From the IMG/VR virus record IMGVR_UViG_3300032038_009890, positions 1 through 64,000 of that record: 64,000 nt of DNA; one strand, 5' to 3'. A program made the translations under genes and the position numbers. The notes under the pieces are model-generated. The model was not told where the DNA came from, searched no databases, and was given only the letters and a program-made list of their open reading frames with translations. Source of the stretch: a virus (taxonomy: Duplodnaviria > Caudoviricetes). The first letter of the stretch is position 1. Each line of letters opens with the position of its first letter. Of the stretch, positions 1 through 34,649 are shown piece after piece.

Positions 1-219
1 ATGAAAAGTTTTGTAGTGTCACGTAATTATGGATATTTTAAATGTGCGAAATGCAATACTATTTTTATAGTTCCAGATGACGAAGATTTTATATGTGATT
101 GTTGTGGTTCAACAGATTCGTGTTCTCCTAATTGGGATGAAGTTGTAAATCGTAAGATTCGGATATTAAGAACAAATGGGTATGTAATTCATGCGCCTTA
201 TAGTTATTATGAAATTTGA
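1..219 (+). CDS. small zinc-ribbon protein (CxxC...CxxC); start is at the window edge
   Basis: 72 aa with CAKC and CDCC motifs; TGA stop; no in-frame TAG. Confidence 0.6.
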   Translation: MKSFVVSRNYGYFKCAKCNTIFIVPDDEDFICDCCGSTDSCSPNWDEVVNRKIRILRTNGYVIHAPYSYYEI

Positions 220-1710: not shown

Positions 1711-4700
1711 ATGCCTAAAGTAACACATCATAGTAGCGGCGAAGGTGTTGATATTTCTGTTTTATTACAAATGATGCAAGATGATATCGATGGTTCTAGC
1801 GCTAGTAGTAAAGGTGGTAAAGTAGATACAAAAGCGTTAAAAGACGCCATTAAAGGAATAAAAGAAGTTGGAGAAGCGGCAACTGCATCCGCGAAGGACG
1901 TAGATGAACTAGCTGAAGCAACGAAAAAATTTGAAGATACTGTAAAGAGATTCAATAAGCGATCTTCTTCGGAGTCTTTTGCAAAGACATGGTATACTGA
2001 TATTGACACAGCGAAGAAGGCGCTTACAGAAACAATAAAGGAATTCAAGGATTCTGATTTCTCGCTTGGAGATTTGGGAGATAAAGGAAATAAGGATTTA
2101 AAGAAGCAGATTCTTAATCTTAGCAATGTGTATCTTGCGCTTGGAGGAAATCTGGATGAGATACATGCTAAAATGAAATCATTTTATGATGAGCTTTCCT
2201 CACGTTCTGGAGATCTTGGTATTAATGTATCGACAGACCAGTTTAAACAATTTTTTGCTGAATTGGAGTCTCTTCCAGAAGAATATCAGAATCAGGTTAA
2301 TAGCTTGGGGAAACATATAAGCGAGGCCTTGCACGATGCTTCTGAGGAGGCAGTAAAGGCTACGGCTAAGATGAAGAAGGAAGTTTCCGACGCACTCGAC
2401 GAGCCTGTGATATCTTTGGATGATATTATTAATCTGGAGAGTGGTGACAAGGCTATAGGCAAGGTAAAGAAATATATCGGACAGCTTAAAAAGGCCATTG
2501 AGAAAGAGCAGACAAGTCTTACGAAGTATACCTTTAATCTTTCTAAATATGGCGCAAATAGCGATAGTTTAATGTCTCTCGATGAATCTAAAATAACCAA
2601 GATACATGATGATCTTCAAAAGGCAATGAATAAATATGGAAATAATTTAAAGGTTAAAATGGGAGACGGCAATGGAAATGATACGATATTGTCTCTTAGG
2701 GAAGCTTTTAGAAAATTAAATCCTGCCTTTTCTGATAAGCTTGGAAATGATAGTAAAATGTCCATGAAGGATATTACAAAGATTATGGAGTTTTCGTCAA
2801 AGAATCTTGATGAGTTAAATGAGAAACTAACACACACATCAAAGCTTTTAGATGATATCACAGAAAAGCGAAATCAGTTTGCTAATGTTGAGGAGATAGC
2901 AGAGAAGAAAGAGACGAAAAAGAGAGAACCAAAGAAAAAGGACGAAAAAAAGGTAAAAGAAGCATATGTTTCTAAGGTACTTAAAGGTACAGAAGAAAGT
3001 GCTAGGGGTGAAGCCAAGAAGGCCGCAGAAGCATTCTTTGAAGAGTTTAAGAAAGCGCTCCAAGCAGAGAAGAAGGATGTGAAATATCTTTATGAGTCTT
3101 TATTTGGTGAAGGACTGGACGCAAGTGTAAAAAATGCCAGAAAAGCAATGTTTGGTCAATTAACTGGCACACAATATACAAAGGTATCTGATGTAAAGAA
3201 CAATCTTCGTAATCTGGATGCAGACGCTTACGATAGTTATCTTAATGGAGTTTCTTCCGAAAAGACACAAAGGGAAACAGAAAAGAAAGTAGAAAAGAAT
3301 ATTGAAACATATAGAAAGAAGCTGAAGACTATTCTTGAAAGACCAAATACCAAAAAGAATTTGGATAAATCTGATATGCCAGAAGAGCTTTGGATTCCTA
3401 ATATTGCAAAGCAGATAGAAAGTCAGATCACAGATCAGGAAGATTCTATAGAGGCGGCGATTAAGGCTTTTCATGAAAGGGTAAAAGAGCTTACTGGGAA
3501 ATTTTTTGTTAAGGGTGATGGCGCTCTTGCAAAAGGTGAGTGGCTGACAGAGCAGGAGTATGAACTCAAAAGGCAACAAGCCGAAGAGAAAAAGAAGCAA
3601 CGTAAAGAGGCGGATGCAGAACAATTAAAGAAACAACAGAAAAAAGACCAAGCCGCCAATAATAATGAAAATGAGACAATTGATTCGCAAACTGCCCAAG
3701 CGACGGCGGATGAACATAAAGCTATTGCAAGCGAGAGAAAATCCCAAGCGGAGCAAGCAGAAGCAGAAAATGAGATTCTTGAACAAAAAGAAAAGAAACT
3801 GAAGTCACAACAACAGAAAGCAGAACAGGCCGAGGAAAACGCAGAAGAACAAGAAAAAAGTGCAGAGGAAGAACGCAAGAGGGCTGAAGCAGAAAAAGAG
3901 GCGGCAAGAAAAGAGAGAGAAAAACAACAGAAAGAAGCGGACGAACAAAATAATGGAGAGAATTCACAAAAACAATCGAAGCCGAAAGATACAACAACTA
4001 CTAAAACTGTTACAAGAGAAAGAGCAGATGGAAAGATTGTCTCGGAACAAAAGCAAGAGACTACTGGCGGGGCAACTACTGGGGGCAATGCAGGAGAGGC
4101 CGCGTCTAAAGTAAGTCAAGGCCTTACCAATGCAGGAGCTTCAGCGAGTACTGCTACATAGGGCGTGAATCAGCTTACTGAATCATTAACCGAGGCGGGG
4201 AAGGCCGCTGAAAATATTCAGATTAAGATTGATGTAGATAAGCTTATAGAGAAAACAAAGGGAAAACTGGCAGAGCTTACAAAAGGAACCCCCAGTGAGA
4301 ATATAGCAAATCAGTACTACAGTAAGAACTTAGACAAACAAAAGACATTTCTTAATTTTAGGAATGATTTCGCAACGGCATTTGATAAAGCTGTCGATTC
4401 TGTTGATTCAGCGCAAGGCATAATTAAGCTTGTTGGTGTCTTCGATAAATTAAAAAATAATTCTTTTGAAGTAGCCGACGCTATTAAAATGGTGAATGAT
4501 ATTGCTAATTCTGTACCATAGACTGTTGTCAAAAAAGAAGTTAGTAAGGAAGAGATTGTCAAAAAGGTTCAAAAGTTAAAAGAGTTATATGATGAAGTAG
4601 ACAATGAGCTATACAATAGAGAAAGTAATACATTCGTTTCTGAAAGCTCTGAATTATACGACAATGATGTAATTGAAAAATTGCTTAAAACCTTGGAAAG

Positions 4701-7700
4701 CTTTTCCGCAGAAGAATTAAAAGCTATTGGGGTTAATGATGATTTTGCAGATAGTCTATCGGAGACAATAAGCCAATACAGGGAGTTTAGTGAAGATTCG
4801 GTTAATTTTGAGCCATCTAACTGGGAGGATTTAACTCAACAGCTATTAGATGTTTACAAATATGTGGACGCAATTGTTAGCAAAGTGGAAATTCCTTCTG
4901 TAACGGTAGAAGCCCCGGTTGAAGCAGTAAATGAAGGTGTAACAGAGGGTGCAGACGAAGCAAAAGAAAAAGTTGAAGAAGTAAATGATAGCATAGATAG
5001 TGCTGTAGATTCTGCTAAGGAAAAGATCGAAACAATTCAGGATGTGATTCTTGAATTATTTGATGCTCTTGCCGATGGAATTGAGAACAATGATTATATT
5101 AGTGATCTATTCCCAGATTTTGGTGATGATAAAGCATCGATAAAAGAATTTATAGAATTATTTAATGAATTATCAGAAGCCGAGTTAAAGTCGGTTGTTG
5201 ATGATCCAAGTAAATTTATAGATTCTATCAAATCTCAATTTGAAGATTTAAAGTCGTTATATGATCAGATATCTAATGAAAAAGACGATAATGTCGCCTC
5301 TAGATTAGACGATACTTTTAGATCAAAATTCGAAAATTTTATAACATTTGCAGGAGAACAGTTTGACGTACTTGATGTACAAGAACTAAGCTATGATAAC
5401 ACTGCTGAAAATGCAGAGGAAAATAAGGAAGCATTAGATAATCAGGCTGAATCCCAAGAACATTTGAATGAAACAGAAGAGGCCGAGCCTGACAATTCTG
5501 AAAAGGTTGAGAAAGAGACAAAATCGAGAGAGGAATTGATACAGATTCTCCGGGAACAAGAAGATGCTTTGGCGGATTTACAGGCCAGAAAAGAAGCCTT
5601 AGATAAAGTATCAAAAACTATTGAAAAATATGCCACGCGGGATGAGGACGGTAATATTGATACAGAATGGCTATTAACACAAGCGGAAAATCATTTTAAC
5701 AGTGATAAAGATAATGCATTCGATAAAGCAGTTGCTTATTATGGAAAATATGCTGACGAATTTATAAAGCAAAATGGTGAGGAGTTTAGATAGGCGCTTG
5801 GGCTTGTTGGATATGAGGGTCGTGAAGAGCAAGATTCTGCCGAGATGTTGGAATTGTATGAGGAAATTATTAATGCAGATGAAACCATTCGTGATCTTGA
5901 AGAGCAAATCAGAGCTAATCGTGAAAAACTTGCGAAAATGCCCGCACCAGAGAAAAAGGAGCCAAAGAAAACTGATGAAGCCGCTGAACCTAAGAGGGCC
6001 GAGGAAACCGCAGATAAAGAACTAACTCGGTTGGAAAAGCTCCAGAAGGAAATTGATGAAACTAATGAAAAATATAGTGAGATGTTAGACTATTTAGAGC
6101 GTATTGATAATGCAAACAAAAAGATTGATTCAAAGATATCTGGAACAGGTAGTGAGAAATTAGCTTCTTTATTACACGGAACTAACGTAACATTTTCGGA
6201 GGGCGATGCCGAAGTTGCATCATTATTCTATAATAAATATTTAAAGCAAGCTCAGAAAATGGGCATTAATCCTACACATATATTTGACGATGAGGGTGCA
6301 GATATTTCAGATAATCTCATTAGAAAATATGATGAATTAAATCAAATGAAGCAAAAAGCAGAAGAATTACATAGAAAACTTATAGCACTGACACAAGAAT
6401 TAAGCAAAGCAAAGACTGAAGAAGCTGAAGCTACTAGAAAGACAACAAAAGAAACTAAAGACAATAGTGATGCAGTAGAAGAAAATACTGATAAGAAAAA
6501 GAAGAATAACGAGACAACTGCTTCTAGTGGGTCTGGTTCTGGCGTAAGCAAAAAGACTAGCGGAGGAAGCAGATCGTCAGGAAATGAACCAACAGATTTA
6601 GCCAATACTTTGTTTCCGACAAAACATGATATAGAGAATGAGAAAAAGAGAATTAGGAAAGCGTCGGGGGATAAAACTGATCGTTATTTAACAATAGAAG
6701 ACCCTTCACAGGATTTTGTTAATGATGTCACAAAGGAATTACAGCTTTTAATTCTTTATATGGAAGAACTTGGTGGCACAACTGATAAAGTTAAAGAGAA
6801 TTATGAAAGGTTTGTAAAAGAAGTAAGTGTTAAACCTAATATTAAAGGCCTAGATGAGTTAAGACAAGAGTTAGAGGATACTGGTAAATCTGCCATAGAG
6901 GAACTACAGGCATTTACACAAGCTAAGAAGTCAGCAGGACAAGGTGGTTCCGCTCCCGCTAAGCCAAAGCCCAGACCTGCTTCTGCACCAAGCGCCACTC
7001 CTGTATCAGCGCCTAGCTCCCCTGCTCAACCATCTGTTGTTCCTGGTGCCGTAGGCGAAGAAAATGCGGCCTTACAAGAACTCGACAAAGTGTTGAGAAG
7101 CACTATTCCAGAAGCTGTGCGCATTAAAGATGCCGCATTTATAGAAGAAAAAGATATAGTTACCGGGGCTATTGATAATGAGATTAGCGCTGTCAAGGTT
7201 CTGGAAAAGGAGCTTTCAGAAGGTGTGCCGAAGGCAATTACTCAACAAAAAGATGCTTTGAAGGAAAATACTGAAGAGGTTTCTCAGGCTGTTGTCGAAC
7301 CACAAGTAACTGCCGAACCAGAAGCGCAGGTTTCAGAGGATTATGAAAACCTTAGAGGATTAATAGCACAAGTAAGTGCCGAGATAGAGAAGTTGCGTGA
7401 GCAATTTAATTCTCTTGAGTCTAATGCAGGATTGAAAGCTGAGCAAGAACAATTAGTAAAGCTTATTGATATCTTAATGAATCAGATTCCCGGCGCAATT
7501 ATCATTAAGAATCGTGCTTTTATGAGCGAGAAAGAAGTTGTCTCTAGTGTTGTGAATTCTGAGGTTGAGTCTTTTAAGGTATTTGAGAATAAATTAACTC
7601 AGACTATTCCAGAAGCCATTGACAAAAAGAATGAAGCTTTTAAAGAAGAGGTTAGCGTTGTTAAGCAAACTGCGCAAGATGAGGCTGATGCTTTGGATCC

Positions 7701-10700
7701 TCTTGAACAAGTAATCCAAAGTATTAGTAGTAGCTTAAACTTTGATGTAAGCGTGTCAGGTACTGGAAGTCTTAGCAATGTAATAAGAGATATTAGGAGT
7801 ACTCTTGATTCAAAAACAATAGATTTATTTACTCATGAACTTGAAATATTATTAAGTGAAATTCAGCACTTTATGAGTGTAAACCTACGTAATAATAATA
7901 TTTTAACTGTGATTAATAGCATTGTTGCAAAGACAGATGATTTGCAGAGATTGATAGATATACTTCAGCATTCTGAGGCGCAAATTAATGCGGTTAATAA
8001 TGCGGTAAACAATGCTACTCCGAGCGCTCAGCCCTCTTCTGTAGCCGCGAATACCTCTTCTACCCCGCGCAAAACGTTTAAGCCGACTAAAAAACAAATT
8101 GCCGATGCGCAGAAACAGAAGAGAGATCAGAGGAAGCAAATCGAGGATCAAGAGAAGGCGAATAATGCAAGTAGATATGATGCGCTGACCAAGTCTCTTG
8201 ATGCTCTTACCGAGGCCCGTACCAAATATAATATTGCACTCGCCGAGTCTATAAAACGTGGAGATACTCTGCAAGCCCGCGAAATACTTTTAAAAGATGC
8301 AGAAGACAAAAAGACTGAAGCTATTAATAATGCAAAACAAGCAATGCTTGAACTATATAAGATGCAAAAAGCGGGGCAGATTACTCAGGAACAGTTTAAT
8401 AAAGCAATGACATCTTATAAAAAAGATGGAAGCCCGAAGTCATAGAGTGATCTCCAGAAAGCTAAAGATCAACAAAAGAAAGCACAAGATAAACAACTTA
8501 AACAGGAATGGGAAGCGGGTAAACAGGAATATTTAAAGAACCAGATTGCTTATTATAATGAATTGACGGAAGCTGTTAAACGTTATGTAGACATTATGAA
8601 GAGAGCAAAAGCAGGTAGACCAGAAGCAGACGATGCAACGCAATTACCTATTATTGAGGAAAAGATTAATCGGATGACGTAGGATACAGATGGCTACTAT
8701 TATGATTCTGATATGGAAGATAGGGCTTTGAAAGATCTTTATAATCTTGATGATATACTTGATCAAGTACAGCAGAAGATGGATAGAGCAAATACAATAA
8801 AATTCCAAGATAGTATGAAAAAAGCGCAGGACGCTATTTAGAAGTATTATGAATCTGCTGTAAAATTAAGAGACCTTTAGGAAGAGGCGGAAAAGAACGG
8901 TAGGAGTACTGATACAAAACCCATACGTAATGCTAGAAAGGCTATGCTGAAGAATAAACAAGATGCTGATAATTTGCTTGCAGGTGTAAATGGTATTGAC
9001 AGCTTCTAGGACGGTTCTGAAGCAAGGGCAAATTATGCTTCTGCCGAGTCTATATTTTCAAGGTATGGTGATGTTAAGTCACTGTTTGATGTGGTCGCAG
9101 ATCCCTCGAATGCGGTTGAGGTATATCATACTCTTATTAAGTATGCAGAAGAATATGTGCGTTTGACTACGAAGCAAGATTCTGGACAGACATTAATGCA
9201 CTCCGAGGTTGAAGAGATCACAAAGCTTAATGAATTGTACGATAATCTGAACAGAAAAACGACCTAGTATGCAAACAATTTACAGGGAGAAGATACGAAT
9301 CTCCCGCAAGAACTTGCTAATAGGTTAAGTGAAGCAAAACAAACCTAGGCCCAAAATCGTTTTGAAAATGTTGGTAAGAACCTTGACAAATTTAATTCTT
9401 ATGAAGATAATGCAAATCTGACTGTATGGTTGAATGATGTAAATCAAAGATATGATGATTTGAAGCAGAAGATAGATAGTGTTAACTGGTCTGGGACTAG
9501 TCAGACCGATCTTGATCAGGCCAAAGACGCTTTGCGAGAACTTAGTGATATGGAGAAAGAAGTTTCGTCTGCTTTGTCGAATGATAGATTCGTAAATATT
9601 ACTGATAAGCAGAAGAACACACTTTCTAGGCGAATGGCTGAATGGGCCTCGAATAACTCTGCGGCAAAGCACTCTATTGAGCAGATAAACGAATTACAGC
9701 AGAAATTACAAAACATAGATGATAAAGGTTCTCTTGAAGAGATTAGCAACGAGTTTGAGGCAATTAAGAGAAGAGCTTATGAGAGCGGTGAAGCGGGAAA
9801 GAGCTTTGGAGATAAGCTGAAAACGAGCTTTGGAAATCTTGGAAGATATCTCCTTTCGTTTGTAAGTATATATAAAGTAATAGACGCTATTAAACAAGGA
9901 GTATCTATTGTAAAAGAGCTTGACAGTGCGATGACAAATTTACGAAAAGTTATCGACGATACTGATGATTCTTTTGCAAACTTTTCTAAAGAGGCATTTC
10001 AAATTGCCGAAAGGCTTGGTTCTACTGCTTCATCGATAATTGATGCGGCAACAGAATGGGGACGATTAGGTTATAATCTTGAAGATAGCGCTAAATTAGG
10101 AGAGGCTTCAGTTATATATGCTAACGTTGGTGATATGGATGCCACTACTGCTTCAAATGATCTAGTTTCTGCTTTGAAAGCATATAATAAAGATGCTAGT
10201 GAAGCAATGCACGTAGTTGATATTTTAAATGAAATCGGTAAACATAAATTGCCGAATATAAAGATAGCTATATCGGTTAAAAGCTAATTAATAGTCGAGA
10301 CCGAGCAAAGACATATAATAAATATTATGTATGCGTAGAGACTGTAATGGTTTATATGGCAACATATAAATCTTCGCTATCCTCCATATAGGAGAATATT
10401 CAGTCCGTACTCACGATATATATATATATAAAACGTGAGAATATGCCAGAAATGACATGTCGCTAAATATTATAGTTTAGTAGTAACAACAAGAATAATT
10501 ATGCTGTTTCTAGCGCACAGCTTGGTGAAATCTTGGAAAAGGCTTCTTCAACATTAGCTCTTTCTGGAGATGGAATTGAGCAAGCTGTTGCAATGGGTGC
10601 GGCAATGCAAGCAATCGTGCAAGATGCTTCAGTAGTTGGACAAACATTAAAAGTTGTAGATTTAAGGCTTCGTGGAAGTAAAGTTGCTCTGGAAGAAGCA

Positions 10701-13700
10701 GGAGAATCAACTGAAGGTATGGCTAATTCTGTTTCTAAACTTAGGGGGCAGATTATGGCACTTACATCAGTTAATGGAAATCAAGGCATTGATATTATGA
10801 AGAATGACACAGAATATTATTCAATGTATGAAATACTTGAAAAAATTCATGCCGTTTGGAATGATCTTACTGATATTGATCAAGCCGGGCTTCTTGAATT
10901 GATGGCAAATGGCTTGCCATAATATATAGAAATATATATAAAGAACATTTTTAATTGCAGGTAAAACCTAAAGCTCTGCACCACAATAGCGGAGAAATCA
11001 CGCTATGAAGGTTTGAAAACGTAGAGATGTAACAATGGTAGTTCTGCAACTAAGCGCCCTAACGTAAAGCCGAGGGCGAAAGCTCACTGGCCAGACCCGT
11101 GTTGGGCTACAGACTAGAGAATAAATATCTGTAGCAATAGTCGTAAGGCGTAATCACAAAGACGTTGGTGAAAATCCATTAAATTGAAAAGGAATGCTCT
11201 CAGCACGTAATGGTGGAGATGAAGAAATGGTCGAATCTCATGTGAAAGCATGAGGTGTTTGTAAGAACACGTATGGCGTTGTGAACCATGTAAATATAAA
11301 TGAGGTAAGATTTTGCCTCTAAGATATGGAAACATATTTTTATGTACACATTTAATTGCGTTGATTACCTAAAGCTCCATGCCACAATAATCAGGAAACT
11401 AGATTATGAAGGATTAACAAGTTGGAGATGTAACAATGGTTAATTCGCAGGAAAGCGCCCTAACGTTATCCGTAGACCATATGGTATTAGTCGAGGGCGA
11501 ATCCCCAACGACTATCCCCTTTATCGGGGCTTAGAATAATGAATAAGAGTGGAAATCTCGAATATCTAAGCCAATAGGAGTACGGCCCAATCGCAAATGG
11601 GGTGAGTGAAAATCTCTTAAATGGAAATGGTGTGAACCCTACCGTGAAAACGAGGGTTTAAGAAATAGTCTTAACTTGTGCGAAAGCATAAGACTGTAAG
11701 TGGTATGTAATACGAATTGCAGTCTCACTTTGGTTGCGAAAAGTGAGGAAAAAATTGAAGAATCGGGCTTAGGGTCTAGCAGCGCTCCTAAACAACTTCG
11801 ACGAAGCAAAACAAGCTCTTGAAGATGCCTACAATGCTGAAGGTAGTGCCCTTAAAGAAAATGATCGTTATATGGAAAGTATAGCAGGCCATACCGCTAT
11901 ACTTCAAAACAGACTTCAAGAACTCGCGGCAGTAACAATCAACTCAGACTGGCTCAAAGATATCGTAGATCTTGGGTCGGGTGCAATAAAAGTCGTAACA
12001 AAATTAGTCGATACAATCGGTTCTGGAAACATTGCCGCAGGTGTTTTAATGGGTGCCATCGGAACGGCTAGTAAAATTGGACCAATCAATTATTCAAAAG
12101 GTAACGGATTTAGCATAGGTAATCCTTTTGCTACGAAGTCAGCAACTATAACAGTACAACAAGGTTTTGACAGAGGCGAAGCGTTATACGGCGCAATAAA
12201 TGATAAAGATCAAAGTCTTCTGCAAATGTATAATATTGCACAAGATGGTCAAAAAGCTAGGGATGTCATAGAAAGCCAGTGGGGTGACCTCGGCACATTC
12301 TTTGGTGGACTTAGCGAAGATGCACAAGAGCGCATCAAACCTCTCTGGAAATCGGTTGAAAATGGTTCTATGGAAGCAAAAACATTCGTAGAAAAAGCCG
12401 CCTATAGTGTCGGCATAACAATGAATAATACTCAAAAAGCCGCTGCAATAAACATGGATAAGATAAAAGGATTTGCCATGTCAACTGTATCAGCAATAGG
12501 AAATGCAGTTATTTCTATGGGAATCTCAATGCTTATTAGTGCAGGTGCAAGTCTTATTATGAATGCATTAGATGAAATTATTAATCACGCAGATAAAGTA
12601 TTAGAGCGTGGTGAAGAAGCCAAGAAAAAGATCGAAGATATATACAAATCAGTAACAGATGGACAAAAGAATATTAAAGACATTGCCATCTCTGTAAATG
12701 TAGATAATGCAAAGCTTAACACAACGAAACAGAATCTTGAGGGTATAGCAGAGACTTATGCAGATATGAAAAAAGGGGTAGATGATGTAACAAATGCGAA
12801 TAAGACTCTTTCTACTGAGAAATATGAAAAGTATCTTCAACTGAGCAAAGACCTTGCAGATCAATTCCCGAATCTTGTAGAAGGTTATGACTCTCAAGGC
12901 ACTGCAATTCTTGAGCTTAGTGGCAATGTCGAAACATGTACTCAGCAATTACAAGATATGTATGATGTCTCTTTGGATATTGCAAATCTAGAAATAACAA
13001 ATTCATTAGATAAATCTTTTGAAGCTATACTTCAGAAAGCGAAAGATACAAATAAAGAGTTGGTTGGACTCAAAGCAGAAGGTGATACATTAGATGAGTC
13101 TCTTGCTTCCGCAAAAGAAGGATATCGCATGCGAGGCGAGGAGAATCTTGCGTATGGAACTAGTTTAAGATTCCAGAATGGAGAGGTATATGATCAATGG
13201 CAAGCTATGTTCAAAGATTATATAAAAAAGACTGATCGAAATCAAGAAACTAAATTCATGGATAGTATTCAAACATAGGCGGATTCTATATTTTTTAGAG
13301 GATTAGACGATAAACCATTTTATATTCAGATACCATAGGAAGATTTCTACCAAGACCCAAATACTATATAGGCTATGCTAGATTCTCTTGACAAGGCACT
13401 TGAAATAACTGGAGACGCTGTTATTGGAGAATTGGAACATGAATCATCAGATATAAATACTAAGATTCGTGGAAAAGAAGGCGAACTGGCTCAATTAAAT
13501 AGGGATACAATGGAATTGATAACTAATTCTCTTACAACAAATTCAGATTTCATGAGTAATAATGAAACATTAGTGCAAGCAGTATTGTCTAATCTATCAA
13601 AATTTGACGTTAGTTCAATTGGAGATGAAGATCTTACTGCGTTTATATACGACAATATTCTTCAATACTTCGAAAAGATACCAAGAGAAATTCAAGATGG

Positions 13701-22700: not shown

Positions 22701-25700
22701 AAGAGGAAAGACAACTTTGTCTGCCGATTACTATAAAGATAATGATAACAGAGTAGAAGTCTTTAAGGAATTGTTACAATCTTTTGCATCTAAGAAATAC
22801 GGAAATATTGATCTCAATAATCGTCAGTCAATGCCGATGGATGATGGTAGCATTGCTACTGTTCTTGGCAGTTGGGATAATAACTTCGTGGCAGATGGTG
22901 GTAATATTTCTGTTGCTTTTAGTCCTTTGCTTCAGACTGAAAATGGCCCCGTGTTGCTTAAGAGTGGTATAATGAATGACTATATTCAGTTATTATTGGA
23001 TAATGCATATGATAAGAACGGATTTAATCCCGATCTAGTATTTAACCTTGACAAATAGGGATTCTTATACAGACAAGTCGAAGATGCATTTGGTAAAATA
23101 TGGGATGAATTAAATATCAAGAATATGGTTGCAGGTGTATCTAAGGATACTAATATCGATGCACAAAACGCGGCGGGTATTATTGGTGATATCATGCACG
23201 AAAGTGAAGAAGGAACGTATGATAATATTTCCTATGCCGTTCAAAGAATATTGGATACTTTAAATGGAAATGAATCATTAATGTTTACTCTTCCTATAAG
23301 AACTAACGATGTTGAATTTATCAATATGATTCAAAAAGCATTAGATGAACATGGAGCATTTCCTATTAAGGTTTATCCTGTTATTCCATCTAGCACAGCT
23401 AGTTCTGCACCTACGTTCTCTAATGCATTTGCTGAGGGGACAAACAACGGTGAAATAACTCATAAAACAACAGCACTTGTAAACGAACTTGGTCATGAGG
23501 GAGTAATTCATAATGGCGTTCTCAGAGAGATTCATGGTGGAATGCATGAAGAAAATCTTAGTCCTGGTGATGTGGTTCTTAATGCTCAACAGATGGATCA
23601 GCTTAAGAAGACAGGCCGTGCGTCCGGTAAAGGGCGTGTAATTGGTGGAGCGAAAGCGTTATATGAGAAAAATGCTTATGCAGGAGGTTTATCTGGAACC
23701 TTCTCTATTCCGAGTAGCGGACTTACTGGAAGCAGTGCCGATTGGTCTCATTATATTTTCCGCGATGAGAAAAACCGTGGGCTTGATACTGTTATAGATA
23801 ATATTCCAAGATACTTGAATCAGCTTAATCGTACAATTCAACGTCTGGATAGTAGTATCTCAGAATATACATCTGCTTCTGAAAAACGTGAAATTCTTGA
23901 AGAGAAATACACTGCGATTATGAAACAGATTGCGGCAAACAATAAAGCATACACAGAATACATGGCAAAAGCCAATGAAATTGCTAATCAGACAGAATTT
24001 ATAGATAGCTCTGGAAAGAAAAAGACGATAGAGAGTCTTGCATCAAGATATAATCTCGAAGATCTTCGTAATGGTAAATTATCTTTGGATACCTTATCAA
24101 ATAACGAAAAAGATAAACAATATTACGAAATGGCACAAAAATATCTTGAGTGGGTTGACAAAGGTTAGTCTGCACAGGATGAAACATTCTCTTTACAGAG
24201 TACCTTACAAGATATTTATGAAAGCCTTATTGGTCTTCCATTCGAAGAGCTTGAGAAATCTTTGGATAAGCTTTCGAGCAAAATATCTGCTAATAGTGCG
24301 TTTACTTCTGCCGCCCAATCAGGTGAAGCAGGAGCAAGATTACTTTCTAACACATTATCTCAATATTTTGGCGAGGAAGGTGCAAGTTTATTTGATGCGA
24401 CTGGAAACAGCTATGAAGTACTTAATAGACTGTTACAAAAGAATGTTGAGCTTAAAAAGGAAGAATTAACTCAAAATATTGATGCCTTGAATCTTGCAAA
24501 AGAAGAATATGATAATCTTTTGAACGAACAGTCTTCTTTACATGGCGAATTAGCAACAGCAAAAGAGACTATCATTAATACTTTGCAACTTACAGAAGAG
24601 GATTATGAGAGAATACTTAATAATAAAGCAATAGAAGCATCTCATTTTGATCAGTACGAAGGCGCAGAAGATGTACTTAATGATTATAATCTTTTAATTG
24701 CGAAAGTTAATTCTTGTGATACGTCTGTAAAGAAATTGGGCGACGATATTGAAAAGAGAACATATGAAAACTATGCGAAGGCCGCAGAGACAAGTCAAGA
24801 AGTAATCAATATGATTGATTCTGAACTGTCTGCAATTGACAAGTACTATAGTGCAATTCAAAATCATACTTCTACTCTTAATGATGGTCTTGCCGCAAGT
24901 GCGGATTATATTACTAAGTGGTTACGCGTTAGTGATAATACAATGAATTTAATTAATAACTATACTCAGCAAATTGCTAACTATGCTCAAGAAGCTGATG
25001 TGTTAAGTCAAAACATTGCCGCGCAAGAAGCTTATTTGAATTCTATGTTAGCAAATGGCACGTTAAAGGTTACAGACACAGAGTATCTTGAGAGAATCAA
25101 TCAAATTAATTCTATGAAGAATACATTAAAAGATTATATTAATGGACAAAACGAAGCAACAAAAGCTATGATGGACCTTCCAAACGAAGTTGTAACCGAA
25201 AAACTTGCTGATATTGAGGCCGCATATAATTCTCTTACTACTGCCATGAATAAAAATATTGCATCCTCACTGTCTACAATTAGGGCCTATGAAAGAATTG
25301 CGGGAAGTAGCATGTTTACTACGACAGGGAATCCTCTTGAATATCAGTATCAAAATGCTCTTTCCGAGGCCGAGGTTCAGAAATTACAGCAAGAGGCATA
25401 GGTCACTATTGATGGTTATAACCAAGCACTCGCTAATTATCTGGCGGGTGGGACTCCAGAAGAGATGAAAATGAAAACGGAGGCTTTGCGAACGGCATAG
25501 ACAGCCATGGATGATAAAGTCATGGAAGCCGCCGTGAAAGCAGTACAGCTTTATTCTACTGAGATGTCAAATATCGAAAATTACTACAAAACTATTAATA
25601 GCTATATTGATACAGAAATAAATAAACTTGATATACGAAACGCTTCTCTCGACAGAGGTGTTGGATATGTCAGGAATAGCTATGAATTAATGGGTAACTA

Positions 25701-28700
25701 TAGACAGATCATGAGTAAGACAGCCGAACAAATTGATAATATAAATCTTGCATTAGCCGCCATGAAAGAAGTATTAGCACAAGGTCTGGCTAATGGTAGA
25801 ATCCAAGTTGGCGATCAAGAATACATACGTTTAACTACTCAGATTACTGAACTGGAGAACCAAGGTAAATCTCTTGGAAATACTATGCTTGACACCTGGG
25901 ATAAGATGTTAGAGATTCCTGACAAGAAGCTTCAAGAAAGGCTTAAAAAGATTGCAAATTCGTTTAAATGGTTTAGTGCAATTATGGATAACAATATCTC
26001 TAATCTTGATGAACGTAAAATATTTGCGGGATTTATGCAAGAACTTGATAATGAATTTGGTGACATGGGATAGATCGAAATTGATCTCTCTGCTGAGTCT
26101 TATGTTCAAGGAGACAAAAATTATCAGAGTCAAATTGATAAGGAATCACAAAACGTTGAACAATAGAAGAAGCAATTATATGATTTGCAAGCACTCAGAG
26201 AAGAAACCCTTGCTGATGTTAATCACACACAAGAGCAGATTGACGAGATAGATGATAGGATTAATGATACGGAAAATAATATTATTAATACCTATGGTAA
26301 AATTGCTAGTTTAAGGGCCAATCAGGCCTCCGATTCAGCAAATAGATTCTCAGAATTCATTGATAGTCAATCGGCTCCTATTAATGCTGATTTAAAGAAA
26401 CGTCAAACCGTTAGAAGTTTGGAAACAGATAGATTTGGTTATACAAATCCGCAACATTTATTTGGTTATAGTGGCTATATTCAAAATGAAATAAAAGATT
26501 ATGATACATTAATAAGTTTTGCACAGAAAAAAGCTGATGGTTTAAGGCAAAGGTATCGAGACGGTATATTAAAGCAAGGTCTTTCAGAGGATTCTGAGCA
26601 AATGAAGGCGCTGAAAGCACAATTACTTGAAGCCGACGCCGAGGTTGTACAGCTTCAACAGGATAGTTATAACTTATTCAAAGAACAACTTGCACAGCCC
26701 AAAAACTATTTTGATGAGTAGATTGCAAACTATCAAAGAAAACATTCTTTAAATAATACCTTGCTTCAAAATGGAATTTATGACTCTGTCGCAGGATATA
26801 ATATGTTTGCTAGTCGAACAGATCGCATCACTCTTGCAGATGATTCAAGGAACGAAGAATCCTTTAGGTTCCCTAGAAAGAATCAGCTTCTCTATCAAGA
26901 GGCCGTGGATGCAAGCGAACAGGCAAAGATGGCAAGTGATTATGCTGAACAGCAAAGAGCAATATATGAATAGATAGCGTCAGATAGTACTAGTGATGTT
27001 GATAAAATACAAAAGGCAGAATATGCTATGATTGAAGCTTATAACACTGCTGATGAAATGGCGGCGACTGCGGCAAGTAAATTTATATCTAATTTTAATG
27101 GGATGCTAAGTAATGTTAACTCTTATTTTGATTCATTGAATTCTAATCTTGATTCAACAGCCAGTAAACTTGACTCTATGAATCAGTACCTTGAAGCGAC
27201 ATCTACTATATATAAGACAAAATTCAAAGATATGATTGTTAATACAATTGAAACAATCGGCAATACCAGTGAGTAGTATGTTAATTCTTTACAAAATGCC
27301 GCAGATCTTAAAGCTTATCTAGATAAGGCAATGAAGGAAGGATATATTAATAAGGGTGACACAAATTGGATACAAGCTACAACCATGATTAATAATCTCG
27401 AAGCAGGTGCTGAAAGGTTGAGAGTTAATACGATTGAGTCATATAAATCACTTCTTGAATTCCCGGAAAAAGAATTTCAGAATAAGTTACAATTAATTCA
27501 AAATAAGTTTGCAAGTTTAAATGCCGTACTTAATAATAACATTACAGCATCTGATACCGCTCGTAATACATTCAGAGAACTGATTCAAAGGACAAGTGGT
27601 ATATCTGGTATTGATAAATCTACTGTGGCGGGAATGGAAGGTAGTCAGCCAACATTTATATATCAAAATGCGGCAATTGCAGAAAACATGAAACAACAAA
27701 AAGAAATGTTGGAAGCAAGATTAACATAGGTCAATGAACTGAAGAAAGTTTATGACTCAGTGCGTACAAATGTAAAAGCAGGTATTGATGAAAGAAATCT
27801 CGCTAAACAAGCATATGAAACTGCACAGACAGAATATGCCAATGATGCCGCAAAATGGGCGAATGATAGAACAGAAGCCATTAAAAACATGGTAATTAAT
27901 GTTAAGGCTTATTATGATAAAGAAATAGGATTTATTAATTCTCTTAATTCAAAGCTTGAAGCAAATAGAAATCTTATGGTTGAATTCGGTAAATACACAA
28001 AGAACAGCAGAAAGATTATTGCCACTTATTCAGCCGAAATTAAAAATACCGTAGATGAATACAATAATCTGGAGGCGGCAATTGTTGTTATGAGACAGCA
28101 AATTGAGAAAGAACACAAAGATAATAATCTTATAGGCAATGACTATGAAGAGATGAAGCAACAATTAACAGAGCTTTAGACTCAATTAGTTAATACAAAG
28201 CAAAAGCAGATTGAACTGTTTAGAGATATGATCAAAGTGCCTTCTGGTGTTGTAGATGAAAAAGTAGAGGATATTACTAGGAAATATTATATGTTTACCA
28301 ATGCCTTAGATAGCGGTATGTTAAGCTCTTCTGCCGGGCGTAATATTTATAACTTCTATACAGATATTCTTAATGATATTCTTGGCCTTGAAAAGATAGA
28401 AATCGATGATCAATTAATGTCTGAGAATTTAAGTGATTCTGTAAATGAGGCTATTAGTAATATTAACATTAAAGAAGAAATACTTGATCCAGACAATTTA
28501 ATGGAAGAGAAAATTACTATAGAGGACATCTTTGATGAAGAACTATTCGATGGTACGTTGGTTAATGATCTTACCGAGGAAATCGAAGAAGCTTATAGAG
28601 GAATACACTTCCCCACTACATCGGATAATCTTAAACCTGATTTGATTCCAGAATATGTTGTATCCGACGAGAAACAGATTTATCCTGTGCGTGAAATCAA

Positions 28701-31700
28701 CACAGAATATAAGAAGCAAAATGATCTACTTCTTGATCAATATAGACGCTCTAATGAAATCTTTAAAGCACGTACACAGGAAGCCATTGCGGCAAAACAG
28801 ATTTATGAGCAAATCAAAGATAACAAGGATATTGATGAAGAGTATAAAGAAGTCGCTCTCCAAAATGTTTACGAGACCACGTAGAAGGCTGAGGATGCCG
28901 CATTCGAATTAGGTAAACTTAGGTATTCTATTATAGATGACTTAATCGAAAATACCTCAAAATACTTCTCAATAATTGATAGTTACTATAATAATGTTTC
29001 TAGTAATATGCAATCTATAAGGCAATTTGCGGCCGATATCTATGGATTCCAAGCACAAGGATCCTTAATTGGTAGGAATCTTGAACATGAACTTGACTAT
29101 TCCACTGCTCGTATGGACACAATCCGTAGCGAAATTATAAAGATACAAGAGATTGTAAAAGCGGGCGTTGAAAGTGGTGATATTGAAGAGAATAGTCTTA
29201 AATATGCGGAGTACATGAACACCCTTGAAGAGAAGCGCGGGCAATACATCAGTATGGCAAGTACAAAAGCAAATCAGCTGAAAGAGTATTTTAGTATTGC
29301 GAATAATGAGGCCACGGAGCAAATCAATAAATATGCACAAGCTTATCGTGGACTTGAGGCCGTAATGAGCAATATGAGTACCACTGGTCAGCAAAGAGCG
29401 CTTGCAGGAATGGGCTATGATTATTCATTTAGGAATCAAGATATTACTAACTGGAAAGACACAGCTTATGCTTTCGGCGAGACCTACGTTGGGCAAAATC
29501 TTGCCTTGGAGCGTAGTCTTGAGAGAAGTAAGAAGGAACTCGATACTTACCATGAGGCTGTCCTCACCACATATGCAGATCTTCAAAAGGCACGGAATGA
29601 TGAGAGTCTTGGACAGGATGCCGAAATTATGGCAATGCAGGCACATAATACCGCATTAGATAGTTATTATAAGAAACTTGGGCAGACCGCTTCGGAAGAA
29701 ATCAATGATCTGAAGAATATGATAGGTAATGTTGCTACTTATTATAGCGGGTTTATTTCATTTTATGATTCAGTATCTGATAAGGCTGAAAGCACTCGCA
29801 AGACTATAGAGAAATTTAACTCTACTGTAAATGATCAGGGTGTTGTAACCCGTGACGTTAACGGCATTATTGATACTTATAGAACACAGATTGAACAAAA
29901 CAAGCTGTCACAACAAGCACTTTCTAGATCTATAGTAGAGCAAACAAAGTATCTTGATATTATTAAAGATAAGTACGGTGAAGATACTGAAGAATATCGT
30001 GAAGGAGTTATTTCGTTAAATCAGTTATAGAATCAATATGATTCACTTACTATTAAAACAGATGAATTCTATGATGCGATGAGACAAGAAATTGATTTTA
30101 CTCCAATTGATAATGCTATTGCAAGGCTTAAGTAGTTAAATACATCTTTCTCTAATCTCAAGGAACTTATTTTAGACAATGCAAAAATAACAAAGGAAGG
30201 CGCATTCACTGATCTTGGCAAGTTATTTCTAAATATGGATCTGGCAAGCTATAACAATGCAATTAAGAACATGGATGAATTAAAGAAGAAACAGGCTAAG
30301 ATGATCGCAGACTTCCGAACTGATGAATTCTATACAGAAGAAGAGTTTTCTGCTGATATGAATAAAGTCTAGGGAGAAATCCAAGATGTTGCAAAATCCA
30401 TGCTTAGTAATATCCAGTCAATCATAAAGGCCTTGGAAGATAGGCGAAATGCAGAAGTATCATACGAGAAAGAGCTTATTGATGCCTACGAAAAAGAATT
30501 GTCTAAGAAGAAAGAAATGTCTGACTTCGACAAAACTCTTAAGGAAAAGAATAATTCCGTAAAACAAGTAGAGATGCAAATTCGTGCCCTTGAACGCCTG
30601 TTAAAACGGGCATTTTATATTAACTGCGGGAACATCCCCATAACCTTAGTATGCTACAACGTAACTGGAAACGGTAAGCGTGAATGCGGAATATGCTCAT
30701 AGCATTAGATACCATAAAAAATACTAAGTCAGGGACAACCGAGGATGCGAGGTCCTCAGACGCAACGAAGCTCCTAAACCAAATGGCATGGAGAACGCTC
30801 AACGACTATCTCGAGAGAGAGTAGGATTGCAAGCGATTGGCAATTCGAAAGATATAAACTATTTATTGTATTTGAAATACTCGGTATATCTATGTAAATT
30901 TAAATAATACAATAAATAGAAAATATAGTCTAGTCTCATATGAAAATATGAGGGATAATAATCCTTTGTGGTGTAGCGAACCATAGAAAATGTAACGAAA
31001 TGATGCAGAATCTAACGCACAACGTGCAAGACTTCAGGAACAGCTTCAGTCTGCTAAAGATGAGCGTGATAGCACTATCGAAGGTAGAGTTGTAGAGCTT
31101 CGTCAGGAGGCATTCCAGAAAGTATCCGAGGACCTTGATAAGTCCTTAGAGAAATGGACAAAAGACCTTGAAATGAATATGCTTAAACTCCCCGATCTGA
31201 TGACTGTCACTGATCATAACCTCCAAGGATACGAATAGATCGTTAATGGTGCAATGCAGGATTTGCTTGGAATATTTAATGGATTGGATTCTACGACATA
31301 TGCAGGATATAATAAGATTGCTACGGATATGACAAATGCAATTGATCAAAATGCAAAGCAAGATCTTATTGAGAGTCAAAAGATAAATGCCGAACAACAG
31401 AAAAATACAGACCTGACTTAGGCACTTTAGAATCAATTATAGGCGCAAGGTGAACGTCAAAAAGCAGAAGCACAGACGCGCGCCTTGTATCAGGCAGAGA
31501 ATTCAACACAGTATCAGAATACTAATAGTTTGCTGCAATAGATTTTGGAACTTAATAAAATTATGCCAAATGAAGAAATGCTTACACTTAATTTTAATAA
31601 CCTGCTTAAATCCATTAATGGTCAAAGCGCTACAGATGTTATTACTGGAATGAAAGAAAGCAGAGAATCTGTTGTAAATGATATTAAATCTTTCTTAAAT

Positions 31701-33620
31701 GATGATAAGAATGCACTGAATTTAGCTTTAACTAATACCAAGGTCAAAATCGATTCTGTAATAACGAAGATGACCGAGGCCAACAATAAGATTCCTGATC
31801 AATTAGATGACATACTTAATAATGGATTTGACAAAATGGCTAACGATGTTACGCTTCAACTAAATCAATCGAATGATACTATAGTTCCAATGATAAGTGA
31901 TGTTATTCTTGCTTTGTACGGAATTAAACATGCGGCAAGTAAGATCATTCCAGCAAAAATTGAAGGCGTGTTTGACACAGGAAGAAATTCAATAAATCAT
32001 ATGTCAAATGATACCCGAAATGATAAAATAGCAGATGGTGCGTATGTTGATCGTTCTAACAATGATGAAATTACTCTTGATGATAGAAAAAGAACTGGTT
32101 CATACAATAATGTGCCAGAAGGATTTGCGCCACCAGAACCAACTAATAACGCGAATTACAATCAGCCAACTCCCACAATAACTTCACAGCAAGTAAATGG
32201 AGGCACAAAAATAACTATCAATCTGCGCGGAAACAGTGGTGGTGACAATACATTAAAAGCTATCGCAGATGTTAATGGATATAATACCAGTCTTAATTCA
32301 GTAGCTCCCAAAATTGATAGAAGGTTAATGAATGCCTTTAATGCGGCCGGATTGAAGGTAACAGTTACTGATGATAATTTTGGTGGCGAGGGAGTATTTA
32401 GCAGGAAAGATGGTGGTTTGGTTCTTAGATCAGAACATACAAATGATGGTACAGCATATCATGAACTTGGGCATTTCCTTGCTGATATTGCAGGTGTCAC
32501 TCGAAGTGATATGAAAGATGTATACGACAAAGAAAGAGAGAAATTCTTTGGAACATTTTATATGTATGCAAACTCTAGTGCATCAGAATTTTTTGGCGAG
32601 TCTATGAAACTTTTCACAGAGAACAACGATAGGATGAAGAAAGAGATGCCGCAAACATATGCATTGATTGAAAAGGCATTGAATTCTATCAATGAAGAGA
32701 AAATCAAATCTTATAAAGCTAAAGTTGCAGGTGGCTATGCAAGTGGTACATCTCGTGCGTCTAGGGGTGTTCATAAAGTAAATGAGAATGGTCTAGAAAC
32801 ATTCGTAACCAAGTCTGGAACCTATATGCCATTTAGTGGTGGCGAGGGTGTAATTCCCGCAAAGGAAACCGCAAGATTAACCTCTCTTGTTGAAATGATT
32901 AATTCTTATGCATTCTCGGATGATATTCAAGGAATGTCGCAAGATGTCGAAACTCTTAAGAAGGCCCAGATCATGCAGATAGAACAGCTTAAGATGGGAT
33001 TATAGAATTCTGATATAACGATGGATGAAATCGCTGAAATACAAAGTAGTATAATTGATCTTGAAAAAGCGGTTGATCAAACACTTAAGAATCTGGCGGA
33101 CGCACAAGAACGTCAATACGCCGAAGAGGCACTCGCGCGACATACTAGTCTTATGAATCAGATCGAAAGTGATGCTCGTACTATTAAATATATGAATGCA
33201 ATATTTGTTCCGCTTGAAGTATTATCTGATTATGCGAATTAGGAAAAAGATATTCAATTAAAAGAGCTTGATGTAAACTATCAAATTCTTGGTCAAATCA
33301 CAGAAAGCGTCAAGTAGATACAAGAAATAAATAGTTCTTTTGAGCAAGGGTTATTTAAGCCACAAATGCCTGATATGAGTGGATATTTGATTCCAGAGAC
33401 TTTATCTGACTCTTCTGCTTCAAGCAATAGTGGTGATATATATATTGATTCCTTAATCACCATTAATGGTAAAGTTGATGATTCGGTAGTAGGGGATATT
33501 AAAGATATTGCTCAATAGCTTGTCCAATATAGAAAATTCCAAGAAAACATTACTGCAATAGTGAGTAAGAGGCAAGCACAAGATCGCAAAATGGCGGGAG
33601 AACGGGTGCTTGTTAAGTAA
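1711..33620 (+). CDS. giant tape measure protein, ~10,136 aa, TAG=Gln; exons 1711-10239, 10494-10906, 11303-11306, 11758-30599, 30998-33620
   Basis: ORF-track fragments share one frame within each exon and are separated by TAG (~50). TP901-type TMP core (ELDSAMTNLRKV...VDILNEIG|NNYAVSS...LELMA|G|KNRAQ) is restored by splicing. Spliced length is 30,411 nt = 10,137 codons. Ends TAA, then a hairpin, then the Dit gene. Confidence 0.9.
10240..10493 (+). ncRNA. group I intron 1 in TMP (254 nt, no ORF)
   Basis: 5' exon ends in U10239 and intron ends in G10493. IGS ATTGCCGA pairs with the ligated junction TCGGT|AAT with a U.G pair. P7 is GACTG(10340-44)/CAGTC(10401-05). Removal restores EIG-NNYAVSS. 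Confidence 0.9.
10907..11302 (+). ncRNA. group I intron 2 in TMP (396 nt, no ORF; C-G pair at the 5' splice site)
   Basis: IGS GCTTGCCAT (10912-10920) pairs over 9 nt with the ligated ATGGC|AGGT. P4 is TTGCAG/CTGCAA; variant P7 is GGCCA(11089-93)/TGGTC(11228-32); terminal G11302. Confidence 0.82.
11303..11306 (+). other. 4-nt micro-exon (AGGT) of the TMP gene
   Basis: Needed to keep the frame and rebuild ATG GC|A GGT|AAG AAT CGG GCT TAG = MAGKNRAQ; preceded by an intron-terminal G and ends in U. Confidence 0.8.
11307..11757 (+). ncRNA. group I intron 3 in TMP (451 nt, no ORF)
   Basis: P1 GAGGT/GCCTC with U.G at U11306; IGS also pairs with 3' exon AAGA; P7 GACTA(11510-14)/TAGTC(11666-70); terminal G11757; downstream exon in frame with ORF 11872. 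Confidence 0.9.
15050..21300 (+). repeat. degenerate ~105-aa protein repeats within TMP
   Basis: Recurring [LQK]P[ILF]xxL motifs (e.g. 15691, 16312, 17368, 18001, 18658, 18982, 19285, 19609, 20263) and TxxDY motifs, spaced at multiples of ~315 nt. Confidence 0.65.
24235..30130 (+). repeat. about seven degenerate ~250-350-aa protein repeats within TMP
   Basis: Unit starts LPFEE, LPNEV, IPDKK, QPKNY, FPEKE, VPSGV, IANNE, TPIDN, mostly 740-810 nt apart; most units contain a YY/YF motif and a GxIxxxDxEY-like motif. Confidence 0.65.
30600..30997 (+). ncRNA. group I intron 4 in TMP (398 nt, no ORF)
   Basis: P1 GCCT|G...CGGGC with U30599.G; P element AACTGCGGGAA; R CTCAACGACTA (P7 30804-08); S ATATAGTC (30926-30); terminal G30997. 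Removal gives LERL-NDAESNAQRARLQ and explains the frame change. Confidence 0.88.
32290..32700 (+). other. zinc metallopeptidase domain (ATLF/PPEP-1-like) within the TMP C-terminus
   Basis: AYHELGH (HExxH at 32460-32474), then YANSSASEFFGE and MKKEMPQTYALI, the pattern of the anthrax-lethal-factor/Pro-Pro endopeptidase family. Confidence 0.75.
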
Positions 33621-33680: not shown

Positions 33681-34649
33681 TTGGCATATTTTGAATATAA
33701 CGGAAAGACAACTGATAATATAATCTCAACCCCACTTATATTAGTTGTTCAAGATGGATTAGATGAAATAGTAACTACCAGAAGTAAAATAGAGGGGGAG
33801 AGAACCATATCCCGATATGTGACAAATGAGTATGGCACTATATATGACTCTCTTTCTTTTCAGATAACTTTAATGAAAGACCAATTTAAGCCACCAGCAA
33901 TGACCGAATAGATCACAGAAGATATGACACAAGAACAAATTCAAGAGGTATATAGACGCTATAATGAACGGGTTGATCGATTATACGAGCAATTTTAGGA
34001 TACGTTTACAACTGACGAACAAATTACCATAGAACGGTGGTTACTATCTCCAAAGTATTCGCAAGAATTAATGATGGTGAATTGTGATAATGAATATTAT
34101 TGGTATTTAGGATTGTTTACTAGCGTAGAATGGGATATTGCAAATAATGGATATATGTTCTGCAAAGCCACATTTTAGGTTAATGGTGCTTATCCATTTA
34201 AACATAATTCTTGGGGTTTTTAGAGTGAAAACACTGGTACTGAAACAACTAGCGAACATACTTTGACTTGTGACTCTCATGAAATAGAAGAATATATTTA
34301 TCCTTATATTAGAATTATACCATATGAATCCACTGGTTCGAACGATCAAACAATTACTATTGTAAATTTGACTGATGATGCGAATAGAGTATTTAAAGTA
34401 TAGAATCATGGCACAAATATTATGGAGATCGACTGCAATGGTTGTGGTATTTATCAATCTTATGAAGATGGTGGCAATTATAAGATAACAAAACAATATA
34501 AATTCTCCGAAGTTGGTTTAGGAACAAATAATACAATATACTGGCCTAGGATTGTAAGTGGAAAGAATACCATTAGGATCACAGCAAATGCTAGAATATA
34601 CTTCTTATTTAATACTCCGTTTAAAAAGGCAGGTGGTTGGTTAGCATGA
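33681..34649 (+). CDS. distal tail protein (Dit-like), 322 aa (TAG=Gln)
   Basis: TTG start; single frame through TAGs to TGA; directly after TMP; N-terminal YFEYNGK and C-terminal WPRIVSGKNTIRI are typical of Dit. Confidence 0.8.

Follow-up and report, generated by a model that had tools for sequence, protein, structure and literature searches.

Does the stretch between positions 1711 and 33620 of IMG/VR virus record IMGVR_UViG_3300032038_009890 code for dozens of small proteins or for a single giant one? The window analyzed here is the first 64 kb (64,000 nucleotides, nt) of a single 217,075-bp virus contig. A sequence-only reading had proposed that this 31.9-kb stretch hides one tape measure gene of 10,137 codons, dependent on about 50 read-throughs and four splicing events, which standard annotation would split into more than 30 fragments. 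The gene was rebuilt with splice sites set independently of that proposal, from group I intron rules and from alignments to homologues, and exactly the same figure of 10,137 codons was obtained. The resulting model of a tape measure of 10,136 amino acids (aa) is very probably right. The explanation favored here, that this is one late gene for a TP901-type tape measure which needs splicing and TAG read-through and which acts as a ruler, is considered likely. The exons of the rebuilt gene are:

1711 to 10239, + strand: exon 1, residues 1-2843, coding the N-terminal extension and the first half of the TP901-type core; 10 TAG codons.
10494 to 10906, + strand: exon 2, coding the second half of the TP901-type core in another reading frame; matches phrog_4211 positions 722-834.
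11303 to 11306, + strand: micro-exon AGGU of 4 nt, which completes an Ala codon (gc/a) and gives the Gly codon (ggt) in ...LMAGK...
11758 to 30599, + strand: exon 3, residues 2983-9263; 34 TAG codons.
30998 to 33620, + strand: exon 4, residues 9264-10136, closed by a TAA TAA double stop; 9 TAG codons.

The joined coding sequence (CDS) measures 30,411 nt, equal to 10,137 codons with the stop, and codes for a protein of 1,141 kDa. A ribosome-binding site, GGGGTGAGGG, lies upstream of the ATG at 1711. When TAG is read as a sense codon the locus displays three giant frames, 1711-10287, 11692-30717 and 30996-33620 (2,858, 6,341 and 874 codons), spaced by gaps at 10288-11691 and 30718-30995, the first of which holds a 137-aa coding block in a different frame. 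An overlooked in-frame TAA or TGA was looked for in the spliced CDS and none was found before the final TAA TAA; the in-frame TAG codons number 53, in line with the roughly 50 read-throughs that had been announced. This open frame is not due to chance because the other two frames of the CDS hold 427 and 1,284 TAA/TGA codons. Read with translation table 11, the gene falls into 54 TAG-bounded pieces (27 of them of at least 100 aa) in addition to the intron breaks, which is consistent with the more than 30 fragments expected from standard annotation. TAG is not a stop here since all 54 pieces follow one another in a single frame and alignments to uninterrupted homologues run directly through the TAG positions. 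True termination at the TAG codons with independent restarts is thus untenable as a description of separate genes.

The assignment of the product to the tape measure family comes from two profiles. PF10145 (PhageMin_Tail) matches residues 2761-2844 coded by exon 1 with 38.6 bits versus a cut-off of 33.2, over profile positions 3-87 of 201. The limitation of this match to the first 87 of 201 positions, at the end of exon 1, is as expected from an intron that cuts the domain. The second profile, phrog_4211, is collinear across three exon blocks, at positions 293-721 (exon 1, E-value 1e-40), 722-834 (exon 2, 3e-11) and 840-1754 (exon 3, 1e-25), the exon 2 match exactly filling the gap between the matches of exons 1 and 3. 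The PHROG tape measure match begins at residue 2409 and the PF10145 match at residue 2761, which bears out the earlier statement that about 2,700 aa precede the core. Pfam and PHROG scans of the protein gave no family besides tape measure.

The protein keeps the ordinary tape measure layout of core, hydrophobic segment, helical ruler and C-terminal motif. The N-terminal extension is composed of charged helical segments and has a Pro/Ser/Ala-rich linker near residues 1700-1850. Exon 3 codes, in this order, the end of the core, a hydrophobic segment (residues 3224-3252) after the core, long helical stretches, a non-helical block and a tape measure motif of the form ...NELGxE... Helicity is judged here by composition: E, L, A and K are abundant in the protein, and windows rich in Gly and Pro are limited to a few blocks. 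Diverged internal repeats were detected at residues ~4800-5900 and ~7200-9000 by phmmer on sequence windows, and a BLASTP comparison of the protein with itself found none. The non-helical block at residues ~6350-7000 has no Pfam, PHROG or PDB match in sequence searches, and its single-sequence fold reaches a predicted local distance difference test (pLDDT) score of 35. It contains the motif YGNIDLNNR (window 22798-22824, residue 6663), which opens a ~600-residue non-helical block mid-ruler. A motif of the tape measure C-terminal type is found twice, near residues 6888 and 9857; the sequence ...NENGxE...GGEGVIPAKET..., downstream of the peptidase domain described below, is this C-terminal motif. 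The motif at residue ~6888 was considered as the true C-terminus and rejected, the gene of relative P0004 continuing after an intron.

The four gaps between exons look like group I introns and are predicted from their anatomy to be self-splicing. They stand for the four splicing events of the sequence-only reading and are located as follows (a slash marks the splice site):

10240 to 10493, + strand: intron 1, 254 nt, no open reading frame (ORF); P1 of UCGGU/AA with UUGCCGA; U10239.G pair; ends with G10493.
10907 to 11302, + strand: intron 2, 396 nt, no ORF; P1 of AUGGC/AA with UUGCCAU; C10906 in a C-G pair; ends with G11302.
11307 to 11757, + strand: intron 3, 451 nt, no ORF; P1 of GAGGU/AA with UUGCCUC; U11306.G pair; ends with G11757.
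30600 to 30997, + strand: intron 4, 398 nt, no ORF; P1 of GCCU/GU with ACGGGC; U30599.G pair; ends with G30997.

A common P1 design of 4-5 exon pairs followed by 2 intron pairs is found in all four introns, as is the terminal G, and a U.G pair occupies the 5' splice site of introns 1, 3 and 4. The longest ORF in any of them spans at most 62 codons. The gathering score of the Rfam family RF00028 (Intron_gpI) is 50, and at gathering thresholds Rfam has no match anywhere in the window. In E-value mode the full-length model aligns to intron 2 (10897-11254, 37.6 bits, E-value 1.4e-7, model positions 1-253), to intron 3 (11297-11692, 37.5 bits, E-value 1.5e-7) and to intron 4 (30566-30952, 33.8 bits, E-value 7.4e-7, model positions 1-253). 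Intron 1 carries the group I R/S-like elements GUAGAGACU and AAUAUUCAGUCC; its minimum free energy has a z-score of -4.2 relative to shuffled sequences and its predicted fold starts with the P1 hairpin. Introns 2 and 3 are ~70% identical over 121 nt. The 3' core of intron 3 is ~74% identical to DNA inside the split lysK gene of Staphylococcus phage K and its relatives. In the proposed mechanism, the four ORF-less introns would leave the 31.9-kb transcript before the giant frame is translated as one.

Each junction between exons preserves the frame, and alignments to uninterrupted homologues show no gap there. Junction 1 reads NEIG/NNYAVSS, and the uninterrupted homologues have LNNIGNNFSIST and FNEVSNNFAISA at this place. 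In the region of the tandem pair formed by introns 2 and 3, homologues have gapless LAGKNR and MGGKHQ; the join of C10906 to AGGU (11303-11306) and then to 11758 yields ...LLELMAGKNRAQG... This micro-exon join was chosen because it is the sole one that provides a terminal G for intron 2, a U.G pair for intron 3 and the conserved AGKNR. A 3' site of intron 3 at 11748 was discarded, since it would insert KKL where homologues have a gapless AGKNR. At junction 4 (U30599/G30997) the sequence ...RALERL/NDAESNAQRARL... aligns without gap to the uninterrupted ...AAIEGITDAESKAAKARL... of L005, a TAG-recoded Logan contig (RALERL/NDAES versus AAIEGITDAES). A 5' site of intron 4 at U30590 was likewise discarded: it leaves a 3-residue gap relative to L002 (MT835469; standard code, human faeces), and U30599 is gapless relative to L005.

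Which amino acid replaces the stop at TAG, and by which decoder? The late genes on the + strand are rich in TAG and those on the - strand are nearly free of it. Elsewhere in the genome (L003:848-1132; genome 177,848-178,132) lies a tRNA(CUA) gene with a 197-nt group I intron in its anticodon loop, which matches Rfam with 53.5 bits, above threshold. ARAGORN misses the unspliced gene because the intron sits in the anticodon loop; after in-silico removal of the intron it calls an 88-nt tRNA(CUA) with a long variable arm and an A1xC72 mismatch. These traits do not correspond to the usual tRNA-Gln shape. In L005 orthologues of the neighboring genes the residues opposite TAG are polar (K three times, Q twice, E twice, D twice, R, H and others). 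Gln is the most likely meaning of TAG, which the polar residues fit and do not prove. Alignments within the tape measure were uninformative on this point, and the putative large terminase, considered for the same purpose, had no PDB or phage-database match. The ribosome would read the 53 TAG codons as an amino acid, probably by means of the phage's own tRNA(CUA), which would first lose its group I intron. The gene of this tRNA being split by an intron, TAG reading would therefore itself depend on splicing.

Relatives of the tape measure bear on the origin of its length and on the assembly. L005 has the same gene order, with two upstream genes, the tape measure, a gene coding a DUF6558 protein and a large tail-tip gene. 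Its tape measure of ~5,130 aa is made of a 3,974-aa exon, an intron and a 1,187-aa exon. The L005 intron (L005:13182-14564) carries a 344-aa ORF and is inserted at the site that corresponds to residue 6,922 of the protein studied here, where the present gene is continuous. In L002 the core is broken in at least 2 places by ORF-bearing gaps of 1.6-2.1 kb, at 21009-22655 and 22884-24971, with ORFs of 384 and 477 aa. These two relatives thus also have split tape measures, at sites that differ from those used here, and intron insertion seems to favor the conserved core of this tape measure clade as a hot spot. The tape measure of a third relative, L001, is intronless and has 2,612 aa. Identity to the tape measures of L005 and L002 is just 26-30%. 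Residues 1911-9370 are collinear with L005, with expansions at 3399-6103 and 7157-9058 in addition to the N-terminus; L005 lacks the M34 peptidase and ~650 C-terminal residues present here. The excess length looks like ruler growth by repeat expansion between conserved anchors, not capture of foreign cargo, and in the proposed mechanism it would stem mainly from the repeat-bearing helical stretches, the longer N-terminus and the added peptidase.

The same comparison bears on the possibility that the gene is an assembly artefact, by chimerism or duplication introduced by the assembler, or that it is a decaying gene. The genome is a single metagenomic contig, a circumstance that leaves room for such an error. 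An artefact is not expected to leave 10,137 codons uninterrupted by TAA or TGA. DNA repeats of at least 30 nt in the gene are limited to the two tandem introns, and composition is uniform, with a G+C content even across the window (0.31-0.39). The domain order and the neighbors match those of L005. A chimeric assembly, which the sequence-only reading had named as a way to be wrong, is unlikely in view of the collinearity, of the syntenic flanks and of the tandem introns being the sole long repeat; artefact and decay together are held to be extremely improbable.

A peptidase domain of the giant protein lies near its C-terminus:

32067 to 32510, + strand: zinc metallopeptidase domain of the M34 family (PPEP/lethal factor fold), residues ~9690-9840, with HELGH at residue 9751.

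Homologues of this domain number 243, and the sampled ones match PF07737 (P0006, P0010, P0014). The domain's own sequence does not match PF07737 even at E-values up to 5, the link running via homologues, and a protein-atlas search with the peptidase segment gave no match. Y-HELGH, the downstream Tyr and ExFxE are invariant in 9 of the 9 sequences compared. The AlphaFold model of the domain has a core pLDDT above 90, and Foldseek matches it solely to the catalytic domains of lethal factor and to PPEP-1, PPEP-2 and PPEP-3 (E-value 4e-4, probability 1.0). The likeness to the PPEPs and to anthrax lethal factor (MEROPS M34, PF07737) thus lies in the fold and in the pattern of HExxH, Tyr and ExFxE; the difference is that the present domain is embedded in a tape measure. 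The peptidase might cut host surface proteins at penetration, or trim the tape measure itself. Nothing points to a role as a toxin.

A trimming peptidase would lead to a different picture of the gene, in which the 10,136-aa product is a polyprotein that is cut, maybe by its own M34 enzyme, one part serving as ruler of a tail of at most ~0.5-0.9 micrometre and the rest as ejected cargo or scaffold. The zinc peptidase within the protein is apparently intact, PPEP-type enzymes cut Pro-Pro bonds and the linker at ~1700-1850 is Pro-rich, the C-terminal-type motif is present in two copies (6888 and 9857), and there is a precedent in P23-45 for an enzyme fused to a tape measure (PMC10770324). The weight of these points is lessened by the position of the 6888 motif, which is internal in relatives too, the tape measures of L005 and L002 extending beyond it. 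Furthermore, the additional residues fall between conserved anchors, in helical stretches that carry repeats, as for ruler growth, and Pfam, PHROG and motif scans of the N-terminal 2,400 aa disclosed neither an enzyme domain nor DxDxD. Processing of this kind is regarded as unlikely.

The reading of the gene as one spliced and recoded ruler must also be set against several points that weigh on the other side. The scores of introns 2 to 4 (34-38 bits) fall short of the gathering score, and intron 1 searched alone in Rfam has no match. Splicing and the assembly are argued from sequence alone. The 5' splice site of intron 2 (window 10902-10920) is a C-G pair, not the near-universal U.G. Its homologue in L002 (L002:22868-22887) has the same GGC/AA, also with C-G, and a P1 of CAGGCAA with UUGCCUG. 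The insertion sites of the two introns lie ~7 codons from each other (within 10 codons) in one conserved stretch of the tape measure, and the two outer P1 pairs differ compensatorily between them. As the L002 intron keeps GGC/AA with those compensatory changes, the C-G pair seems to characterize this intron lineage. As for the protein, ~1,000 residues are non-helical and the N-terminus may lie outside the tube. Among close relatives, an IMG/VR scan gave one distant locus, a metagenome scan and an exact-protein look-up gave none, and a large protein search gave 1 homologue within the length range of 3,452-10,985 aa; none of those scans turned up a relative of similar sequence or similar length. 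Finally, 53 suppressions and four splicing events must all succeed, and the embedded peptidase could cut the protein.

A further alternative is that leaky suppression, unspliced RNA or exon skipping yield mostly truncated products, the full-length protein being rare or regulatory. Suppression is multiplicative over the 53 TAG codons, so that at 95% per codon ~7% of the ribosomes finish. If the 4-nt exon is skipped, the frame changes and the computed product has 2,991 aa; that of unspliced RNA has 2,858 aa. For orf142, the tail tube gene of Staphylococcus phage Twort, skipping of the exon that separates two similar tandem introns has been documented (PMC10136302). In favor of the long product, neither TAA nor TGA interrupts the C-terminal 7,000 residues, whose conserved sequence is collinear with that of relatives; this shows that selection acts on full-length translation. 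Few tape measure copies are probably needed per virion, so that a low yield may suffice. Predominant truncation is considered quite improbable, clearly more so than processing, and the full-length ruler is retained as the favored explanation.

How long a tail would such a ruler build? Tail length usually scales with the tape measure at ~0.15 nm per residue. If this scaling holds, the tail would measure ~1.2-1.5 micrometres (1,520 nm at 0.15 nm per residue). The stronger proposal of a tail of ~1.5 micrometre, of record length and about the size of the host cell, whose ruler output would be gated twice by RNA catalysis, through the four introns of the mRNA and the intron of the suppressor tRNA, is possible and is put forward tentatively. 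In that proposal the frame would survive only when splicing of the tandem pair keeps the 4-nt micro-exon. The present record is the tail of P74-26, nearly 1 micrometre (PMC10034513), and the tape measure gp96 of P23-45, a phage with a very long tail, has 5,002 aa (PMC10770324). These two phages have the longest known tails, ~0.8-1 micrometre. Compared by features only, their gp96 resembles the present protein by its giant size, by its membrane and metallopeptidase segments and by the length of the part that precedes the ruler on the N-terminal side. The present protein differs in being twice as long, TAG-recoded and intron-split, in its M34-type peptidase, in its inferred Gram-positive host and in having no DxDxD, the RNA-polymerase signature of gp96, which is absent from all 10,136 residues.

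Among closer systems, the giant tape measures of TAG-recoded or SPbeta-like gut phages, L005 and L002 belong to the same family (phrog_4211/PF10145), and L005 shares the flanking genes, the TAG recoding and the presence of a group I intron in the gene. They differ in length (~5,100 versus 10,136 aa) and in intron content, with one ORF-bearing intron in L005 and two gaps with ORFs in L002 versus four ORF-less introns here. Twort orf142 has three group I introns (Landthaler and Shub 1999, as cited in PMC10136302 and PMC11878797). It shares with the present gene the occurrence of several group I introns in one tail gene and of similar tandem introns around a very short exon. The present gene would differ from it, as far as the predicted anatomy goes, by having four introns, a middle exon of 4 nt versus 23 nt whose skipping shifts the frame, and a C-G pair in the upstream tandem intron. 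None of the single traits is new: giant tape measures (for the phAss-1 group see PMC10607447) and TAG recoding are known, as are phage tail genes with group I introns. What is unusual here is the pair of tandem introns with only 4 nt of exon between them, the C-G pair at one splice site and the M34 peptidase; no other tape measure found in this analysis exceeds about half the length of this protein.

Should the protein be made at full length and set the length of the tail, the known size limit of tape measures and the record of virus tails would both be roughly doubled. It would then have to be explained how a protein of 1.1 MDa stays unfolded and is threaded, how a tube of ~1.5 micrometre assembles unbroken and what such a reach gains on a Gram-positive gut host. 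The lineage is suggested to have lengthened its ruler by repeat expansion between conserved anchors. The gene is in addition a severe test case for annotation, as standard pipelines would give dozens of fragments, and its tandem introns offer a compact natural system to study splice-site choice by group I introns, with a 4-nt exon and one C-G site.

The genes around the tape measure occupy the positions expected in a tail module:

463 to 1696, + strand: two upstream genes coding 169 and 223 aa, at the tail assembly chaperone position; 40% and 25% identity to their L005 counterparts.
33681 to 39127, + strand: two downstream tail-tip genes coding 322 and 1496 aa, whose L005 counterparts code a DUF6558 protein and a 1337-aa protein.

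The tape measure gene is thus flanked by genes at the chaperone position and at the tail-tip (Dit/Tal) position. The flanking genes match no named family, the search with the two upstream genes giving no family match. Genes are on the + strand from position 1 to ~55.4 kb and on the - strand beyond 55.8 kb. Further downstream of the tail-tip genes is a fiber gene of 1,752 aa with a Peptidase_S74 chaperone domain. An endolysin gene (window 47288-48880) codes CHAP, SH3_3 and GW domains and has 12 in-frame TAG in 530 codons. Lysis genes are reported to be heavily recoded, and this TAG load fits. The fiber gene with the S74 domain and the endolysin with CHAP, SH3_3 and GW domains thus indicate a Gram-positive host.

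Three other loci deserve mention. A gene of the GIY-YIG/NUMOD1 homing endonuclease type (window 50155-51450; 431 aa, 3 TAG) is found among the late genes. A reverse transcriptase gene coding 415 aa (L004:17037-18284; genome 214,037-215,284; phrog_1423, E-value 6e-56; 13 TAG) is found shortly before the tail module. It may belong to a diversity-generating retroelement, and the next ORF, of ~659 aa, passes the contig end without a change of frame and reaches into window positions 1-219. A second giant late gene (L004:7419-14267; genome 204,419-211,267) codes 2,282 aa with 14 TAG and matches only PHROGs of unknown function (phrog_14959, E-value 7e-94).

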